Virus record (IMG/VR): IMGVR_UViG_2757320370_000007
Location: 73,719-137,718 of that record
Reading direction: 5' to 3' (one strand)
Source: a virus
DNA: 64,000 nt
The position numbers and the translations under genes were made by a program. Below the pieces are notes generated by a model. It was not told where the DNA came from, made no database searches, and worked only from the letters and a program-made list of their open reading frames with translations. Positions 2,261 through 44,043 of this stretch are shown piece by piece (within the stretch, counting starts at the first letter, position 1; each line of letters opens with the position of its first letter).

Positions 2261-2641
2261 TTACGTGTATAACAGGAAATCCATAAACCAAGTACTAGGC
2301 GGTAGATCACTATGTATCTCAAAAATCTTTATTGCGTTCGTCTGATTAAGTTGCGACACTTTATAGTCATTTAGTGGCTCTTGAAACAAATCTTCTAATG
2401 CCGATTTACTATCTTTATTAAAGTGAGAACAAAAATCACTTACAGTGTAAATTCTATTTAATATATCCTTATCTCTTTTTTTAGATAAATATTCATCTAT
2501 TTCCCGTCTTGTCTTGGATTCACCGCACCAATTAATAATATTGCTTATATCGTCTTGATTTTTCAAAACAAAAGTAACAAAATTCCAAAACTCAAATGCA
2601 GATTTCTCAACCTTTAAGATTGGACTTAACTGATTTTTCAT
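2261..2641 (-). CDS. Hypothetical protein
   Basis: 126-aa ORF behind AAGGGG RBS. Confidence 0.6.
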   Translation of the reverse strand: MKNQLSPILKVEKSAFEFWNFVTFVLKNQDDISNIINWCGESKTRREIDEYLSKKRDKDILNRIYTVSDFCSHFNKDSKSALEDLFQEPLNDYKVSQLNQTNAIKIFEIHSDLPPSTWFMDFLLYT

Positions 2642-4784: not shown

Positions 4785-5780
4785 TCAACTTGTTCCCGCA
4801 GGGTATAGTCTGTTTATAGTTTTTAGGTTTAGACAGTCTTTAGATAACCTGTGTACTGAAAGTTCACCGTAATCAAACCTCCGGCACACCTCTAATATTT
4901 CTTGTCTTTCAAAAACTCCTCTCTCTTCATATAAGTCTTTTGCATATTTAACCATTCCAGACTTCCTAATGTTTAGAGGTACTAATTCCTTATAATCAAG
5001 CCACCTAGATATGTTTTTAATTTTTCGACTCACAAAATTTCTAGGAGCCACTCCAAAATAGGTTGTATTCATATCTGCTGACCTAAATATATACCCATTA
5101 CTCACCAAAGTTATGTCTCTTGATGATTTCATCTTCACCTGTAGATTTGCATTACTTTTTACGTAGATTGTTTGATTGGCTGCTCTTATCAATAATGTCA
5201 CTAATTTTTCCGATACTTTCAATTTTCTGATCGTTGTTTCTCCATCTGCATCTAAATTTTTTAAAGTGAGGATATTATTTTCTTGATCAATGTCCGCTAA
5301 TTGCAATCGAAGTATCTCTGAGTACTCCCTTCCCATCAAACCCTCGAATAATGCTAGAACTAACGCTCTATCTTGTTCGTTTGACAATCTCCCGATTATG
5401 TCATTTATTTGTTTTTCGGTATATAAAAATTCTAAACTAGAATCTATAAAACTGCTTATAAATTCTTCAGATAAACCCGCCCCTAATGGATTTATATTAT
5501 TATCCCTAAGATCATTTTTTATTGCCCATGTTATATATTTTTTCATTTGAGACAAGGCATCACGACTTGAGTTGTAAGTGGTGGGAGAAAGCAACTTCAT
5601 CACTTGCCCAATCTCATTTACGTTGAAATTATATAAGTCTCTCCCCAATTCTTCCTCTACATAAGCCGCTCTTAGTAAAATTCTTGAGTACACAATTTTA
5701 GTTGATTCCGACAATCCCTTTAAATACCGTTCTTTTTGTTCAGCGTTGAAGAATTCATTCCCGTATATATTGTTAGCCAA
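4785..5780 (-). CDS. yopR: Master lysogeny repressor MrpR/YopR(SroF)-like, tyrosine-recombinase fold
   Basis: FNAEQKERYL, ELGRDLYNF, RALVLALFEG, LVPLNIRKSG resemble YopR; no HxxR motif; likely TTG start 5780 behind GGGAG. Confidence 0.8.
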   Translation of the reverse strand: MANNIYGNEFFNAEQKERYLKGLSESTKIVYSRILLRAAYVEEELGRDLYNFNVNEIGQVMKLLSPTTYNSSRDALSQMKKYITWAIKNDLRDNNINPLGAGLSEEFISSFIDSSLEFLYTEKQINDIIGRLSNEQDRALVLALFEGLMGREYSEILRLQLADIDQENNILTLKNLDADGETTIRKLKVSEKLVTLLIRAANQTIYVKSNANLQVKMKSSRDITLVSNGYIFRSADMNTTYFGVAPRNFVSRKIKNISRWLDYKELVPLNIRKSGMVKYAKDLYEERGVFERQEILEVCRRFDYGELSVHRLSKDCLNLKTINRLYPAGTS

Positions 5781-7113
5781 CTGTAACACTCCCTTGAACA
5801 TATTTTTCAAAATATTCTATAACCATTTTTCTGAGAGGATTAGAATTTATTCCTCTTTTGCTCTTATCATTAAATATTTCAACCAGTTTTTCATCTTTAA
5901 AATTAATGTTTCCGATATACTCCTTAAGTTCTTTTAATGGTTTGTTGGTATCCTGAAAATGTTTTGCTATTACAGTATATCCCAAGAACATTAATGGATG
6001 GTTTATCAAGGTATTTGAATATTTGCGTGGGTCTAATATGAACTCATCTACATAGTATCCAAACAAGTACTTATAAAAGTTTATTAAATATTCAGATACT
6101 TCATCAACGTCTAATCCACTTTTTAGATTAAAAGAATGCTCTATCCCATATGACATTATATCGAATGTTGTTAATTGTCCTGTTATTTCGCTTATTTTGG
6201 GTGCGGAGGCGATCTTACCCTTTTTAAACTCAGACTTCGGATGCTGTTGTAGTTCTTTAACAACTAGATCTGAATTTTTCACAGATAATAACTCTTTTCT
6301 TCTCTCTATTTTAACCGGATTTATTGTATTTATTTGTCCAAAATACTTTTGTGCTTTCGGAGTGTCGTAAGATCTAATAGACAGTATCATATCTTGATTT
6401 AAATATTCATTCATTGTCATGGCTCTCGAACCACCCTCTAAACGGTGAAATCCATCTAATATTGAGACCACAGCTCCATCGTTAATTGTAAACAATCTTG
6501 TATTTTCATTGTAAGTAAATGGTTTTACCTCGTTCGAATAAACATTTAAAGTAATCATATCTTCAAGGTAATCATCGTTAGCCATTTCAGAAGCAATACT
6601 TTTAACACTATTTTTGTTTAGATACGGAGTTGGAACGACTCCATCTCTTTTCATTACGTATACGGCGCTTCTTTGAGTTTTATAATCATAAAAGATTAAC
6701 TGAGAATTAGACATCTGTACCAAAAATGACATTTTAACAGATGTTAAAAAACTATCTTCTCTTATTTTTTTCACATCTTCAATAACTATAGGGAGCATCA
6801 ATCTATTTTCAAAACCATAGACCTCTTTAATATTTTGGTGTGCCATTTCAATCTCATTTTCAGAAAACCAGCGTTCTGGAGACATGTCATCGTAACCAGT
6901 TACTTCATGTATTACTTCCGTGATGACGCACAGTAATGATTCACTGGCTGCCGATAATGCTTGATCTCCTTTCGATATATCTTCAAAGGTTCCCAATGGA
7001 ACACCTTTATCCTTCAATATACTATTTGTTTGATGGACCTTTTTTCTTGTTCCTTTTATTTCCCTAAAACGTTCTTGAATATGTCCCTCTAGTTCTTCTC
7101 TGTCTTTTTTCAT
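5773..7113 (-). CDS. yopQ: YopQ(SroE)-like protein with DGQHR/ParB-DndB-type domain
   Basis: ILDGFHRL motif; 446 aa; immediately upstream of and overlapping yopR, as in SPbeta. Confidence 0.75.
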   Translation of the reverse strand: MKKDREELEGHIQERFREIKGTRKKVHQTNSILKDKGVPLGTFEDISKGDQALSAASESLLCVITEVIHEVTGYDDMSPERWFSENEIEMAHQNIKEVYGFENRLMLPIVIEDVKKIREDSFLTSVKMSFLVQMSNSQLIFYDYKTQRSAVYVMKRDGVVPTPYLNKNSVKSIASEMANDDYLEDMITLNVYSNEVKPFTYNENTRLFTINDGAVVSILDGFHRLEGGSRAMTMNEYLNQDMILSIRSYDTPKAQKYFGQINTINPVKIERRKELLSVKNSDLVVKELQQHPKSEFKKGKIASAPKISEITGQLTTFDIMSYGIEHSFNLKSGLDVDEVSEYLINFYKYLFGYYVDEFILDPRKYSNTLINHPLMFLGYTVIAKHFQDTNKPLKELKEYIGNINFKDEKLVEIFNDKSKRGINSNPLRKMVIEYFEKYVQGSVTVG

Positions 7114-8426: not shown

Positions 8427-8662
8427 TCAATTATCACCTCCAATAGATAATTTACTTCATTAGATCTAAAAGTCAAGTGATAAATAAAACAAAAAAGACT
8501 CTTACATATAAATAATATCATATGTATTGAGCCTTTTATATATTTATTTGTCGATTTATGTAGTTTTTTTATTACATGTTGTTTTTATGTAGTTTTAAAA
8601 TATGCTTCAGACACACATCCAATTACAACTGTCAAAGCATTATCCCCTCACCTTTTACACTC

Positions 8663-8977
8663 TTATTCAGTTGTTAGATGAATAACATTATCTTTAATGG
8701 TCATCTCACTAACAAATTCGACATCGCTTATACTCAGACCTCTTCCTCCAAGTAGTCTTTCGCCTACTGCGACCTTTAAATGATATGTGCTGTCTTCTGT
8801 AAGTTCCTGTTGGCAACGATACTTAGACTGCCACACATAGCGTTGTTTATCTTGCTCAAAAACATAGGTATGTAGATTCGCTGGGCGAAAGTATCTGTCC
8901 GTATAATCCACACCGTAACTTACTTCGATTAATTTCCCGATGATGTCAGTCTTGTTGTTATCCATATCGACCACCAT
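8663..8977 (-). CDS. Hypothetical protein
   Basis: ORF track; AAGGATGG RBS-like. Confidence 0.55.
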   Translation of the reverse strand: MVVDMDNNKTDIIGKLIEVSYGVDYTDRYFRPANLHTYVFEQDKQRYVWQSKYRCQQELTEDSTYHLKVAVGERLLGGRGLSISDVEFVSEMTIKDNVIHLTTE

Positions 8978-9064
8978 CCATCCTTTTAAAATGTTTAATA
9001 AACTTTGATTAAATTCATTGTACTATATATCATTTAATATGTATATGTTTATATTATAAATAAT

Positions 9065-9247
9065 TTATTTTCTTCTTTTCCTTACAACAAAATTGTCTAT
9101 GGTATCAAAAATTCTATATAATTTAGTTATAAAGTCAATCAAGTCATCTGGATTATTGCTCCGTATACTGGTGTTAATCCAAGTCTCAACTTTTGTAACA
9201 TTGTCTTTGAAAACAAGTTTCTGTATGACGTACCTCTTAGTTGTCAT
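9065..9247 (-). CDS. Hypothetical protein
   Basis: 60-aa ORF behind GGGAG RBS. Confidence 0.5.
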   Translation of the reverse strand: MTTKRYVIQKLVFKDNVTKVETWINTSIRSNNPDDLIDFITKLYRIFDTIDNFVVRKRRK

Positions 9248-9369
9248 TTCTGCGATCTCCCGTTGTAATTATTTCCCTATGATTTTCATTATCGGTCTGA
9301 TATATTATAAAGACATAGTTGATTAACTCTCTGACACTCAGTTAGAGAGAATTTTTTATGTCTATAGAA

Positions 9370-9432
9370 TGGAACGATTATCGTTCCAGTTAAACATATT
9401 ATCAATATACTATTACAAGAACTTCAAGTCAA
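9370..9432 (-). promoter_or_regulatory. SigA promoter toward the repression module plus a perfect 19-bp palindromic operator
   Basis: TTGACT-17-TATATT (9432-9404); TGGAACGAT-T-ATCGTTCCA at 9370-9388. Confidence 0.7.
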
Positions 9433-9472
9433 TAGTCAATAGAGAATTGTTTACAATAAAGGGAGCAATAAT

Positions 9473-9682
9473 ATGCCTTGGGTTGAAATCACACTAGATA
9501 AAATACTAATCACAAAGAATATGACCAGGAGAGAGTTGTCTAGAAGAACAAAAATCAGACACTCGACAATTAATGAGTTATGCAATAATACCGCAAAACA
9601 AATACCATTGAAGAATATTACTTTAATATGTGATGAATTAGAAATTGAGGTCGGGGAATTATTTAAATTTCATAAAGGATAG
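9473..9682 (+). CDS. Cro/C1-type HTH regulator (YopO/YopS-like)
   Basis: LSRRTKIRHSTINELCNN...ICDELEIEVGELF XRE pattern; AAGGGAG RBS. Confidence 0.85.
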   Translation: MPWVEITLDKILITKNMTRRELSRRTKIRHSTINELCNNTAKQIPLKNITLICDELEIEVGELFKFHKG

Positions 9683-9687
9683 AAATT

Positions 9688-9735
9688 AAAAAAGAACGCT
9701 TCTCCATTTTTCTAACCCGGAGGAACGTCTTTTTA
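9688..9735. terminator. Bidirectional terminator between HTH gene and mazF
   Basis: Imperfect inverted repeat flanked by A- and T-tracts between convergent genes. Confidence 0.55.
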
Positions 9736-9738
9736 ATT

Positions 9739-10146
9739 TTATGTTCTCGAAAATGTTCTGGTGGTGCTAATTATTAATGCCCTTTCCAACTCTCGTTCAT
9801 ATCTTTTTGGCATGTCCGTTATTTTGTGTATTAACAAACTCTTGTCGATAGTAAAGTGTTGTTCAAACAACACCACACTGTCTTTGTGAAAACCAATTTC
9901 ATTTGCCTTCATATAAACGTGAGTGGGCAATTTTGCTTTTGTCATGCTGCTGGTGATTGGGCAAACCACCACGAAATTTGAGTGTAAATTGCTTCTATCG
10001 TTTGATATAACTATTGACGGTCTAACTCCTCTTTGTACTGATCCTTTTGATTCGCCTAAGTCTGCCAAAAAAATGTCAAATTGTTTAGTTACAATACTTT
10101 CTGCTCTTTCCATCACCATACTCATAATATCCACTCTCCGATTCAT
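9739..10146 (-). CDS. mazF: MazF/PemK endoribonuclease (EndoA/NdoA-like); alternative start 10125
   Basis: DIFLADL-GS.Q.GVRP-VISND-CPITS-KAKLPTHV-DSVVLFEQ-TIDK aligns with B. subtilis EndoA, including catalytic Arg and Thr. Confidence 0.92.
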   Translation of the reverse strand: MNRRVDIMSMVMERAESIVTKQFDIFLADLGESKGSVQRGVRPSIVISNDRSNLHSNFVVVCPITSSMTKAKLPTHVYMKANEIGFHKDSVVLFEQHFTIDKSLLIHKITDMPKRYERELERALIISTTRTFSRT

Positions 10147-10247
10147 TGATTTAATTTATTTATATTCTCTCTATTCGTTATGTACCTTCAATTCTATGTA
10201 CTTCTTCTTTAATATTCTATGTTTTAGTATTACTTATTTATATGTTT

Positions 10248-10276
10248 ATTATACATGTGCAATTAGATTATTGCAA
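10248..10276 (-). promoter_or_regulatory. SigA promoter of mazF
   Basis: TTGCAA-17-TATAAT. Confidence 0.75.
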
Positions 10277-10339
10277 CACTTATATTTACTATATACACTG
10301 ATTTGTCAATAGTATTTCTAAGGTACAAAACTTTCTCGT

Positions 10340-10386
10340 GGTTATTAGGAATAACCTATTGACAAAAAGGATATAAATGGTATTAA
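10340..10386 (+). promoter_or_regulatory. SigA-like promoter of rsfA-like gene with upstream palindrome
   Basis: GGTTATT-AGG-AATAACC at 10340-10356; TTGACA-16-TATTAA with extended TG. Confidence 0.6.
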
Positions 10387-10410
10387 ACCAAAAAGGAAGG
10401 GTTGTTTTAT

Positions 10411-10899
10411 GTGAAGAGAAAAGATCAATGGAGCCATAGCGATGATACCATACTCTCAAAAACTGTTCTAGAAAATATAAGCAACGGAAAAACACAGCTT
10501 CAAGCTTTTGACACAGTCTCAGAGACTCTGGGTAAGACTTCTGCGGCTTGCGGCTTTCGTTGGAACAGCGAAGTACGTAAAAGATTTGCGATCGAAATCA
10601 AGGAAGCGAAGGTAATTAGACAAAGTATTAAGAGTACGCCCACAAGAAACAATGTAAAATTTGATGATCGAATTTCATTGGATAAGGTTATATTATCTTT
10701 ACTTCGTATTAAACAAGAATATGAAGTGATGAAGCAGAATCTCGCAGAGAAGGATAAAATTATTTACGAATTCGAATCAGAAAAGAAGCTACTCGCACCT
10801 GATTTGAACGACGATATGAGACACTTTCTTCAAATCCTTAAAAGATCAAGTATTTTAGATAATTTAACAAATGTAAACCAAAAAGACCCTGCCAGTTAA
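10411..10899 (+). CDS. rsfA: RsfA/YlbO-family (Myb-like) sporulation transcription regulator
   Basis: RKDQWSHSDDTILSKTVL...TQLQAF...KTSAACGFRWNSEVR signature; likely GTG start 10411. Confidence 0.85.
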   Translation: MKRKDQWSHSDDTILSKTVLENISNGKTQLQAFDTVSETLGKTSAACGFRWNSEVRKRFAIEIKEAKVIRQSIKSTPTRNNVKFDDRISLDKVILSLLRIKQEYEVMKQNLAEKDKIIYEFESEKKLLAPDLNDDMRHFLQILKRSSILDNLTNVNQKDPAS

Positions 10900-10933
10900 T
10901 GTGGAGGGTTCTTTTTATGATGAAGTTCGTCTT

Positions 10934-11314
10934 TTATGTTGTTTTATCATTAATTAAGTTAGCTAAAATCTTTTTGATGAAATCTGCTGTCAAAGTTTCA
11001 TTATTTGTTTCGTTCGAATTGTTTATTAGTCCTTCAGAATTGAATTCTGGAAAACCAACCATTTCAGAAATCAGGCTGCTTTCAAATAATCCTCTGGGTA
11101 TATTTTTGCTCACTACAGAATCTATAATTCGATTAAGTTCATAATCATCTAGTATTGAATTTATTGAATCTTCCGTTATAAATAGAAAATGAAGATAAGC
11201 TAAAATTTCTTTAGATAGTTGCGTCATGTAAGACGACAATTCGCGTGACTTATAGCCAGTTGGCCCCTTATGCACTATAAAATTCCCTGAGAATACTGGA
11301 CGCATCAAAGCCAC
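10934..11314 (-). CDS. Hypothetical protein
   Basis: ORF track; AGGAG RBS. Confidence 0.55.
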   Translation of the reverse strand: MALMRPVFSGNFIVHKGPTGYKSRELSSYMTQLSKEILAYLHFLFITEDSINSILDDYELNRIIDSVVSKNIPRGLFESSLISEMVGFPEFNSEGLINNSNETNNETLTADFIKKILANLINDKTT

Positions 11315-11432
11315 TCCTTATATATAGATTTATATAATTTGATTAATTAAATGTAACACAAATCATATGAAAAAAACCAACCTAAATATTTGATTGGTTT
11401 ATGAAATCTACATTTCAATAAAATTTAAGGAA

Positions 11433-11669
11433 TTATTCCGAATAATATCTTTCTTCTCTTTGTCTCAAGTATTCTTCGTGCTCTTGTTCCTGTTCTCTTT
11501 TCCTGTCCTCGTCATCTATCTCCTGTCTTATTCTCTCGTCTTCCTCCTCATCTTCTTCTCTTTTTCTTTCTTCCTCTTCGCGCGCGTCTTCCTCCCACTG
11601 TCTCTTTTCTTCATCTTCTTGCTCTTGGTGTTCTACCATCTCTTCAAACCAATCCTTTTCACCGTTCAT
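11433..11669 (-). CDS. Extremely acidic E/R-rich small protein
   Basis: 38 of 78 residues are Asp/Glu; co-oriented with neighbours. Confidence 0.6.
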   Translation of the reverse strand: MNGEKDWFEEMVEHQEQEDEEKRQWEEDAREEEERKREEDEEEDERIRQEIDDEDRKREQEQEHEEYLRQREERYYSE

Positions 11670-42852: not shown

Positions 42853-44043
42853 ATGAACAATAAATTTGTGATTGATACGAACGCCCTTCTTCTATATTTG
42901 TCTATGATTGATTTAGATGGCGAAATTATTATCCCAGAAATCGTATTACACGAATTGGATAGGCTAAAAATCGGAGACAGTGACACCTCTTATCGCGCTA
43001 GACAAGCAGTGAGAGCGCTGAAATCGAAAGACAGTATCATTTATGATCATGAATTCGGGAAACAACATCCAGCAGCTCTATTGAGCAATGATGATGTCAT
43101 TGTGCAGTGTGCGGTTAAACATTCTGCGAAACTTATTAGTGGTGATTTTCTGGCACAGTTAAAAGCAACAGCTTTAGGTGTGGAAATATATGAACCAGAT
43201 GGCAACACAGAAGAGTATTCTGGATATGAAGAAATTGTTATGGATGACAATGAAATCGCTGAATTTTATGAAAATATGGATATTAATAAATACGAAATTA
43301 ATGAGAACCAATACATAATTATTAGAAACGAATCAGGTAAGTTAATTGAGATAGCAAAATGGAATGGAAATAAATACATCACTATTAGACAGGGAAAATA
43401 TAAGACTGATATGTTTGGAGATTTCAAACCATACGACGAACATCAAATTTGTGCTATGGATTCTCTCGAAACAAACCAAATGACTATGATTAAAGGTAAG
43501 GCTGGCGCTGGTAAAAGTGTAATTGCATTAAATTACGCTTGGAGTCAACTTGAGAAAAATAAATATGACAAACTCATCATTTTCACAAATCCAGTTGCTG
43601 CTAAGAATAGTGCAAAACTTGGCTACTATCCCGGTACGAGAGACGAAAAACTTTTATTTTCACAGACGGGCACAATGCTATCTGCCAAATTTGGAGGAAT
43701 TGAAGAAGTTCAACATCAAATTCAAACTGGCAAACTAGTTCTCCTACCATTCTCTGACATCCGTGGTTTCGACTCTACTGGACTCAAAGCAATAATCTGG
43801 ATTATCGAATCTCAAAATCTAGATATTGAACTTATGAAGACAGGTATTTCCCGTGTCGGAGATGATTGTAAATTAATTTTAGACGGGGATTACTATGGTC
43901 AGGTTGATATGGATGTCTATGCAGGATTCAACAATGGCATGAGACGAGTTAGTGAAGTGTATCGTGGGCTTGACTTCTATGGAGAAGTTGAACTTCAACA
44001 TGTTCATCGTTCTCAAATGGCTAAATATGCGGACTTACTATAG
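42853..44043 (+). CDS. phoH: PIN-PhoH family protein
   Basis: FVIDTNALL PIN start; GKAGAGKS, LGYYPG, IRG, ESQN, GD..Q PhoH motifs. Confidence 0.92.
   Translation: MNNKFVIDTNALLLYLSMIDLDGEIIIPEIVLHELDRLKIGDSDTSYRARQAVRALKSKDSIIYDHEFGKQHPAALLSNDDVIVQCAVKHSAKLISGDFLAQLKATALGVEIYEPDGNTEEYSGYEEIVMDDNEIAEFYENMDINKYEINENQYIIIRNESGKLIEIAKWNGNKYITIRQGKYKTDMFGDFKPYDEHQICAMDSLETNQMTMIKGKAGAGKSVIALNYAWSQLEKNKYDKLIIFTNPVAAKNSAKLGYYPGTRDEKLLFSQTGTMLSAKFGGIEEVQHQIQTGKLVLLPFSDIRGFDSTGLKAIIWIIESQNLDIELMKTGISRVGDDCKLILDGDYYGQVDMDVYAGFNNGMRRVSEVYRGLDFYGEVELQHVHRSQMAKYADLL

Follow-up and report, generated by a model that had tools for sequence, protein, structure and literature searches.

A MazF-like gene with no recognisable MazE at the head of an SPbeta-type repression module, and a possible MazF site in its leader

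The window described here is a stretch of 64,000 nucleotides of viral DNA (positions 73,719 to 137,718 of IMG/VR record IMGVR_UViG_2757320370_000007) and is part of a large prophage of the SPbeta kind, carried by a host of the Paenibacillus type. Its minus strand carries a mazF-like gene, situated at the head of the phage repression module, with a GTACATA motif in its leader. We propose that this gene provides the phage with a MazF input of its own to the lysis-lysogeny decision, and that the input would be limited by MazF-type cleavage of the gene's own leader. The proposal is tentative, and we give it somewhat less than an even chance. The position of the locus, the presence of the gene at six of nine modules built around the master repressor MrpR, and the SOS boxes observed in relatives are the reasons for considering it a phage-owned input to the switch.

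The mazF-like gene and its product

The open reading frame (ORF) called on the minus strand extended from 10146 to 9739, and the in-frame ATG at 10146 would yield a protein of 135 amino acids. No ribosome-binding site was found ahead of this ATG. The true start is probably the ATG at 10125, because the Shine-Dalgarno (SD) sequence GGAGAG lies 8 nt ahead of it (10134–10139, minus strand; kept as GGAGAG or GGAGCG in the homologous loci), the homologues begin at the equivalent ATG with MS(M/L)V(M/L), and the database copy of the protein has 128 residues. The mazF-like gene thus covers 9739–10125 on the minus strand. Judged from Pfam, from solved structures in the PDB, from a family alignment and from an AlphaFold2 (AF2) model, it is an intact yet divergent member of the MazF/EndoA family. 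The match to Pfam PemK_toxin (PF02452) had an E-value of 7.9e-24 (84.4 bits, against a cut-off of 23.1) and that to PHROG 1936, "MazF-like growth inhibitor", an E-value of 1.2e-25. The closest solved structures were those of Bacillus subtilis YdcE/MazF (1NE8 and 4MDX; E of about 4e-23, 45% identity), and Bacillus anthracis MoxT and Staphylococcus aureus MazF were also part of the closest set, with E-values of about 1e-22 to 1e-23. The AF2 model, built on the family alignment, had a mean predicted local distance difference test score (pLDDT) of 77. Its best Foldseek match was 4MDX_A, with template-modelling (TM) scores of 0.80/0.89 and a root-mean-square deviation of 1.9 Å. S. aureus MazF and 1NE8 were the other top matches, which points to the SH3-like barrel of the MazF/Kid/CcdB fold.

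The catalytic pair of B. subtilis MazF, R25/T48 (PMC8634880, PMC10769878), aligned with R35 (codon 10023–10021) and T58 (codon 9954–9952). Both residues were invariant across the 17 aligned sequences, in agreement with the original prediction of an EndoA-like protein with its catalytic arginine and threonine intact. The Pfam family, the fold, the catalytic Arg/Thr and the residues G18/P26/N36 are shared with the MazF of B. subtilis (EndoA/YdcE, encoded by the ydcDE pair) and with that of S. aureus. Compared to the B. subtilis enzyme, the phage protein has an N-terminal extension of approximately 10 residues. The idea that this extension is an autoinhibitory peptide was rejected, as it is short, modelled with low confidence and shortened at the related locus L023.

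Eight residues are highly conserved among MazFs of the UAC/ACA type (PMC8634880). Four of them are kept here (G18, R25, P26 and N36) and four are replaced (G6 by F, P15 by E, E20 by V and R81 by F). The E20 replacement is V30 of the phage protein (codon 10038–10036), at the position of E20 in B. subtilis and E24 in Escherichia coli, where host MazF has a glutamate. Among 15 phage-type members of the family, the position is occupied by V, I or R, valine being present nearly throughout. The E20A variant of Ca. D. audaxviator MazF shows little activity (PMC8634880), and E. coli MazF is routinely inactivated by the E24A mutation (PMC8634880, PMC5888573). Because valine is fixed in the family and other phage MazF-like proteins have K, H or V at this position, the change appears to have been selected and not to result from decay. 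It could correspond to a different mode of recognition or to a weakened enzyme. Besides R35 and T58, most of the groove residues (S29, Q31, P36, K63, H69, S83 and E88) are invariant in the family alignment. These invariant residues, together with a putative inhibitor gene that accompanies the sister subfamily B (see below), favour a retained RNase function.

The replaced glutamate raises an alternative, in which the protein would be a decoy or sponge: a weakened MazF that raises or lowers host MazF activity, either by binding the MazE of the host, as SroB (phi3T_93) does, or by dimerising with host MazF itself. Such a protein would be barely toxic, so that no antitoxin would be needed, and host MazF would cut the GUACAUA leader and close a feedback loop. 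The fixed loss of this activity-linked residue agrees with such a role, and so do the absence of an antitoxin gene (loci L022 and L023 also lack the neighbouring XRE gene presented below) and the location of the gene at the place where SPbeta phages keep their MazE and MazF binders. Such a protein would probably find its target in every host: a canonical mazE-mazF pair lies 4 Mb away in the host genome (8.5 Mb, 50% G+C, against 34% in the window), its MazF differing hardly at all from the UACAU-specific enzyme of B. subtilis, and a canonical MazF was found in 58 of the 61 related genomes searched, with mazE immediately upstream in G000. Cross-neutralisation between non-cognate MazE/MazF pairs of the UACAU type is moreover documented (PMC10893535). 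However, the invariance of R35, T58 and the groove residues suggests that RNA binding or catalysis is under selection, and the absence of the glutamate from other phage MazF-like proteins may mark a specificity class and not inactivity. The proteins of subfamily B have the same valine and are accompanied by an inhibitor-like acidic protein, which hints that the family is toxic. Binding to MazE is not assured either, as the beta1-beta2 loop differs from that of host MazF at 5 of 10 positions. On balance, we consider a decoy unlikely.

The transcription unit and the GTACATA motif

A sigma-A-type promoter, as originally predicted, is located ahead of the gene on the minus strand (10248–10276). 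TTGCAA (10276–10271) and TATAAT (10253–10248) are separated by 17 nt and agree with the consensus at 10 of 12 positions. This was the highest-scoring promoter-like site between positions 7000 and 11500. Consensus scans returned as many sites in shuffled sequence, and the conservation of the -10 block ATGTATAAT across the homologous loci is the better argument. At the other end of the gene, folding indicated a hairpin flanked by an A-run and a U-run, one at each side (9688–9729, core 9729–9694), a predicted terminator acting on both strands between mazF and the convergent xre gene. Its folding energy was -16.5 kcal/mol on the minus strand (z -2.8) and -16.1 kcal/mol on the plus strand; the original prediction had passed over it. 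The next minus-strand gene (60 amino acids, 9247–9065) has a promoter-like site of its own at 9432–9404. Since mazF has its own promoter, a terminator and a separate promoter downstream, it appears to form a single-gene transcription unit and not to be the opening gene of the repressor operon. A perfect palindrome, TGCAAT-N6-ATTGCA (10258–10275), covers the -35 and the spacer and is the only perfect copy in the window. It is not conserved in the relatives and was kept as a candidate operator only.

The leader, approximately 116 nt long (10126–10241, minus strand), is A/U-rich and predicted to be unstructured, with a minimum free energy of -4.9 kcal/mol, weaker than that of shuffled sequences (z +1.5). 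The search of positions 8500–11500 against Rfam gave no match; given this and the lack of folding, a riboswitch or another structured RNA in the leader is unlikely. Two copies of GTACATA are present on the minus strand. Copy 1 (10195–10201, with TACAT at 10200–10196) lies 76 nt ahead of the start codon and copy 2 (10179–10185, with TACAT at 10184–10180) 60 nt ahead of it, and together they form an imperfect 16-nt direct repeat, GAAG(G)TACATA. The two TACAT sites reported in the original prediction, at 10180–10184 and 10196–10200, are therefore present. Taken alone, the pair is modestly unusual: two or more TACAT were found in only 1.5% of the 116-nt segments of that strand. The whole window contains seven copies of GTACATA on both strands, two of them in the mazF leader.

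The mazF family is small (16 clusters at E<=1e-20), and all its members come from Paenibacillus-type sources. Gene neighbourhoods divide it into two subfamilies. In subfamily A, mazF is located upstream of a DndB-like gene and mrpR, whereas in subfamily B it is found behind tail and lysis genes. GTACATA was observed between -85 and +35 of the mazF start in all eight subfamily-A loci, at positions that are not homologous: -76/-60 in the window, -76/-6 in L021, -10 in L022, -6 in L023, -33 in L034, -56/-6 in L036, and +24 in both L006 and L038. Three of the five subfamily-B loci have the motif at -6. The same-strand background outside these regions was 2.3e-4 per nt, which corresponds to 0.027 per 120 nt. 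When all 6-mers and 7-mers near the mazF start were scanned without prior choice of a motif, GTACAT and GTACATA ranked first, above the words of the Shine-Dalgarno sequence and start codon. Because at least three positional classes exist, and because the window has lost the -6 copy yet holds two others upstream, the distribution looks like selection for the presence of the motif rather than inheritance of one site.

The MazF enzymes of B. subtilis and S. aureus cleave at UACAU, and the one of S. thermophilum at UACAUA (PMC8634880, PMC10893535, bioRxiv 2023.04.27.537455). The motif in the phage mazF leader matches the site of the first two enzymes, and the leader is predicted to be single-stranded, as required of MazF substrates. 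In the relatives, the commonest placement of GTACATA is between the SD and the AUG, so that a cut would abolish translation. The most likely meaning of the motif would be a MazF-type cleavage of the mazF leader. Negative autoregulation through the leader, as suggested in the original prediction, is favoured by the motif near the mRNA 5' end at 8/8 loci; the UACAU specificity of the phage protein, on which it also depends, is an assumption.

The repression module, the SOS boxes and the search for an antitoxin

Downstream of mazF and on the same strand, small genes are followed by a SroE/YopQ homologue, the MrpR/SroF repressor and an AgrB-containing cassette. The SroE/YopQ-like (DndB-like) gene covers 5773–7113 on the minus strand (phrog_5732, E 9e-98; Pfam DndB, E 7.5e-6, below the cut-off). 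The MrpR/SroF-like master repressor, which has an integrase fold, is encoded at 4785–5810 on the same strand (MrpR_N_CB, E 9.4e-26; MrpR_C_cat, E 1.9e-15) and is approximately 29% identical to SPbeta YopR. The succession of SroE and the MrpR/SroF repressor that characterizes the SPbeta-type repression module is thus present. In SPbetaL4 the gene order is aimR, aimP, (aimX), sroA-F, and the position of mazF at the head of the module, which the original prediction had pointed out, agrees with this order. Neither aimR-aimP-aimX nor sroA/sroB was recognised among the window ORFs scanned, no dedicated AimR profile having been run. Where the arbitrium and sroA/sroB genes would stand, this phage appears to have mazF, xre and unrelated small genes. 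A survey based on MrpR in 116 species genomes of the genus returned nine MrpR loci, of which six (G000, L006, L023, L034, L036 and L038) have a MazF of this type within approximately 9 kb upstream. A near-identity DNA search with the 1.65-kb region gave no match among 50,697 phage records.

In six of the eight subfamily-A loci (L006, which is in a P. dendrobii prophage, L021, L022, L034, L036 and L038), a LexA box, (A)GAAC-N4-GTTC(C), lies directly against the -35 of mazF. The lexA gene of the host has two copies of the identical motif immediately ahead of it, where 0.02 would be expected. As this box lies on the promoter, mazF should be silent until DNA damage in most relatives. The mazF promoter of the window has no LexA-like site within two mismatches, and L023 is also devoid of the box. 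The stretch homologous to the box of the relatives has decayed here, with about 7 of 14 positions kept, so that this phage seems no longer to have its mazF under SOS control.

The pattern of SOS boxes fits a role in induction better than a standing defence. The latter is at the centre of a second alternative, in which the gene would be a toxin for superinfection exclusion or abortive infection (abortive defence against superinfection was already mentioned in the original prediction). It would be of use to the lysogen, held in check by host MazE or by an unrecognised inhibitor, and would have no part in the phage's own lysis-lysogeny decision. Lysogeny modules and prophage ends are positions typical of defence genes, and subfamily B comes right after tail and lysis genes. 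The PHROG class of such genes is moron/host takeover, solitary MazF-like genes exist in many unrelated phages, and MazEF restricts mutant SPbeta and phi3T (bioRxiv 2023.04.27.537455). However, a LexA box at 6/8 loci implies silence in healthy lysogens, which is unsuited to a standing defence, and the phage's own transcripts are rich in TACAT. A PADLOC analysis of MazF and its neighbours gave no model match, save weak helix-turn-helix (HTH) matches for XRE. Defence against superinfection thus received no specific support and is kept as a rival that we regard as distinctly unlikely.

The only good intergenic LexA box of the window is located elsewhere, at 2839–2852 on the plus strand (AGAACGTTTGTTCC), ahead of a 126-amino-acid gene (2261–2641, minus strand). 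Its flanks are the same as those of the boxes ahead of mazF in the relatives. By analogy, this box may control an SOS-induced antirepressor comparable to Sar of phi3T.

The 255-bp gap between mazF and the divergent gene upstream contains no ORF. When host MazE and its C-terminal MazF-binding half were compared with all ORFs of at least 25 amino acids within 120 kb on either side, the best E-value was 0.75. No MazE gene upstream had been predicted, and none was found. The co-transcribed MazE-type antitoxin (of the AbrB or ribbon-helix-helix type) of a type II MazEF system is thus missing, and the phage shows no MazE mimic of the AimX/YosL type that is recognisable by sequence. This is a clear difference with the mazF genes of B. 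subtilis and S. aureus: the phage gene is a single-gene unit, with no upstream mazE or co-transcribed partner.

Subfamily B presents another arrangement. At four of its five loci a conserved acidic protein of 107–112 amino acids is encoded closely downstream of mazF, and the two genes are a candidate toxin-first toxin/inhibitor pair. This prophage has no homologue of the acidic protein. A second MazF, 54% identical, is present in the same genome just after tail genes (C1:3236983-3237345; L004, or OWN2), apparently in another SPbeta-like prophage, with a very acidic 107-amino-acid protein beginning 25 nt after the gene. Such a pair was also seen at L024, L026 and L027, and its acidic member has no Pfam match. 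Genome G135 contains two MrpR/SroE modules approximately 145 kb apart, one with MazF and XRE (L036) and one without (L037), and a subfamily-B MazF (L026) behind a tape-measure gene, with approximately 20 kb between it and the module without MazF. Two SPbeta-like prophages thus appear to lie next to each other in this genome.

The neighbouring XRE gene

An XRE/Cro-type gene of the HTH_26 family (69 amino acids, 9473–9682, plus strand; Pfam E 5.9e-16) points toward mazF and away from the downstream operon of small and sro genes. The original prediction of an "orphan" mazF was correct in that no MazE is present, but it had passed over this XRE gene, which is found tail-to-tail with mazF at six of the eight MazF loci. 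A third alternative is therefore a toxin-antitoxin or toxin-regulator pair, in which XRE would be the antitoxin, the repressor of the mazF promoter or a partner acting through convergent transcription. Orthologues of at least 54% identity were found only tail-to-tail with this MazF (5/5 in the genus survey, plus L021), and XRE is absent from all three MrpR loci without MazF. In the same genomes, the search for XRE also returned distant HTH_26 paralogues (up to 44% identity), which have no MazF nearby. The stop codons of mazF and xre are 23–44 nt apart in L021 (1091–1133), L034 (3266–3311) and L036 (7420–7444), and in the window the palindrome overlaps the -35 of mazF. The transcripts of the two genes probably overlap at these three loci, which could provide an antisense or transcriptional-interference switch. 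Only the L021 gap was folded, and no hairpin was found in it.

Against a pair, XRE is missing from L022 and L023, where MazF is intact. XRE always occurs with MazF, but MazF sometimes occurs without XRE, the reverse of what is expected for an antitoxin-dependent toxin. The protein is a bare HTH domain, without the extension that MazE, Kis and CcdA use to fill the MazF groove. An HTH antitoxin of a type II system would be expected to share an operon with its toxin and to be always linked to it, whereas xre is convergent, separated from mazF by the terminator in the window and missing at 2/8 loci. No operator motif is common to the mazF promoters of the XRE-bearing loci, and the divergent orientation of xre relative to the downstream operon fits a Cro-like role there. 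We consider the pair improbable. Because of the reverse co-occurrence and of the absence of a groove-filling tail, XRE is read as a putative regulator attached to the cassette, possibly through convergent transcription.

The region between xre and the 60-amino-acid gene (9248–9472) has divergent promoters and a tandem repeat, GTCAATA GTCAATA, which makes two TTGACT -35 boxes on the minus strand. Its layout resembles a divergent control region of the Cro/CI type for the sro-like genes. On the other side of mazF, the divergent gene that shares the 255-bp intergenic segment encodes an RsfA-family (Myb-like) regulator (10402–10899, plus strand; TIGR02894, E 8e-30, below the cut-off) and occupies the same place in L006, L021, L022, L034 and L038. 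The RsfA family consists of sporulation-type regulators, and this member is phage-borne. Farther away, the plus-strand block starts with a gene (42853–44043) for a 396-amino-acid PIN-PhoH fusion, an N-terminal PIN domain followed by a PhoH-like ATPase.

A MazF input to the lysis-lysogeny decision

In the model that we propose, the phage MazF would be an RNase whose level is held down by two controls other than a co-transcribed antitoxin. The first would be transcriptional, through the LexA box at the -35 in most relatives and, in this phage, possibly through the palindrome over the -35. The second would be post-transcriptional: GUACAUA near the mRNA 5' end would be a MazF site of the B. subtilis type at which the transcript is cut, by the phage MazF itself, by host MazF or by both. 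Where phi3T and SPbeta manipulate host MazEF to gain MazF activity, this phage would have a source of its own, and the enzyme would tip the lysis-lysogeny decision toward either outcome through cleavage of phage transcripts rich in UACAU.

The genes of SPbeta and phi3T are rich in UACAU (bioRxiv 2023.04.27.537455). In the window, the density of TACAT is twice that of the host genome. The late-gene block (plus-strand genes of 39000–64000) has 43 TACAT compared to 30 expected from codon shuffles, a modest excess, and the sro-like genes have 3 compared to 6.3 expected, a deficit that is not significant. The direction of the skew is the same as that reported for phi3T/SPbeta, but the skew is weak, and neither figure is counted as main evidence.

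Several observations weigh against the proposed model. The late genes and the sro-like genes differ only weakly in TACAT content. The RNase activity of the phage protein and its UACAU specificity are only assumed, and the protein has a valine in place of a glutamate on which the activity of E. coli and Ca. D. audaxviator MazF depends, G6, P15 and R81 being replaced as well. The loci are related, so that the motif statistics overstate independence and perhaps 4–5 independent placements exist. GTACATA could be a binding site for a DNA- or RNA-binding protein instead. Both copies in the window are located 60–76 nt ahead of the AUG, and a cut there would spare the SD and the AUG, which makes the sign of the feedback uncertain in this phage. 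Finally, three of the nine MrpR loci (L035, L037 and L039) are without MazF, and mazF is therefore not essential to the module.

The closest known circuit is that of phi3T and SPbeta. Efficient lysogeny of phage phi3T depends on active MazF of the host; AimX and YosL bind and block host MazF, and phi3T_93 (SroB) binds host MazE and frees MazF (PMC10769878). MazF is stated to degrade the other phage mRNAs and to spare the sro operon (bioRxiv 2025.11.27.690993). The phage described here resembles the arbitrium/sro circuit by its MrpR/SroF and SroE module and by the location of mazF, in the same neighbourhood upstream of sroE/sroF. It differs in two respects: its lineage encodes a MazF homologue itself, whereas phi3T/SPbeta encode binders of host MazF and MazE, and no AimX-, YosL- or MazE-like sequence and no AimR was found among the ORFs tested, an agr-like cassette following the repressor.

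A feedback of the kind proposed here exists in E. coli, where MazF cuts its own mRNA at ACA sites (Nikolic et al. 2018, PMC5888573). The presumed similarity is a MazF site in the gene's own mRNA. In contrast to E. coli, where the feedback acts on top of MazE and the ACA triplets are scattered, it would act here without an antitoxin and through one or two dedicated sites near the 5' end and the start codon.

Solitary MazF-like genes without a recognisable MazE neighbour are present in many unrelated phages (PHROG 1936). Like this phage, Psychrobacillus phage Perkons (ORF37), Lactobacillus phage ATCCB (a PemK-like protein) and the Streptococcus Javan phages have a PemK/MazF without recognisable MazE. 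Their genes are located among replication or early genes, and their products are at most 45% identical to this MazF. In the literature found, none of them is characterised, and no link to a repressor module, a LexA box or a leader motif is described. The protein family is thus already known, its relatives are annotated as PemK/MazF toxins, and solitary phage members are common and uncharacterised. The same literature contains no description of a mazF placed in an SPbeta-type control region, of its SOS box, of its linkage to XRE, of the GUACAUA leader element or of the fixed Glu-to-Val change.

A bolder version of the model can be considered, although we find it rather doubtful. GUACAUA would be a sacrificial "antitoxin" in cis, which, together with SOS or operator control, would allow a naked MazF to be kept, and in the non-arbitrium branch of SPbeta-like phages, which possesses the agr cassette, the lysis-lysogeny decision would be executed by a phage RNase and not by a host MazEF that has been hijacked.

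With this locus, the question of how a toxin is kept without an antitoxin can be put in a simple system, and the natural Glu-to-Val change is a test of which MazF residues serve activity or specificity. Work of 2024–2025 showed that in arbitrium phages the choice of lysis or lysogeny is set by adjusting the MazEF pair of the host, and why a host RNase sits centrally in a phage decision is a current question. If the proposed model is true, MazF-type RNA cleavage would be an integral and portable part of the switch of this phage family, and not a peculiarity of B. subtilis.

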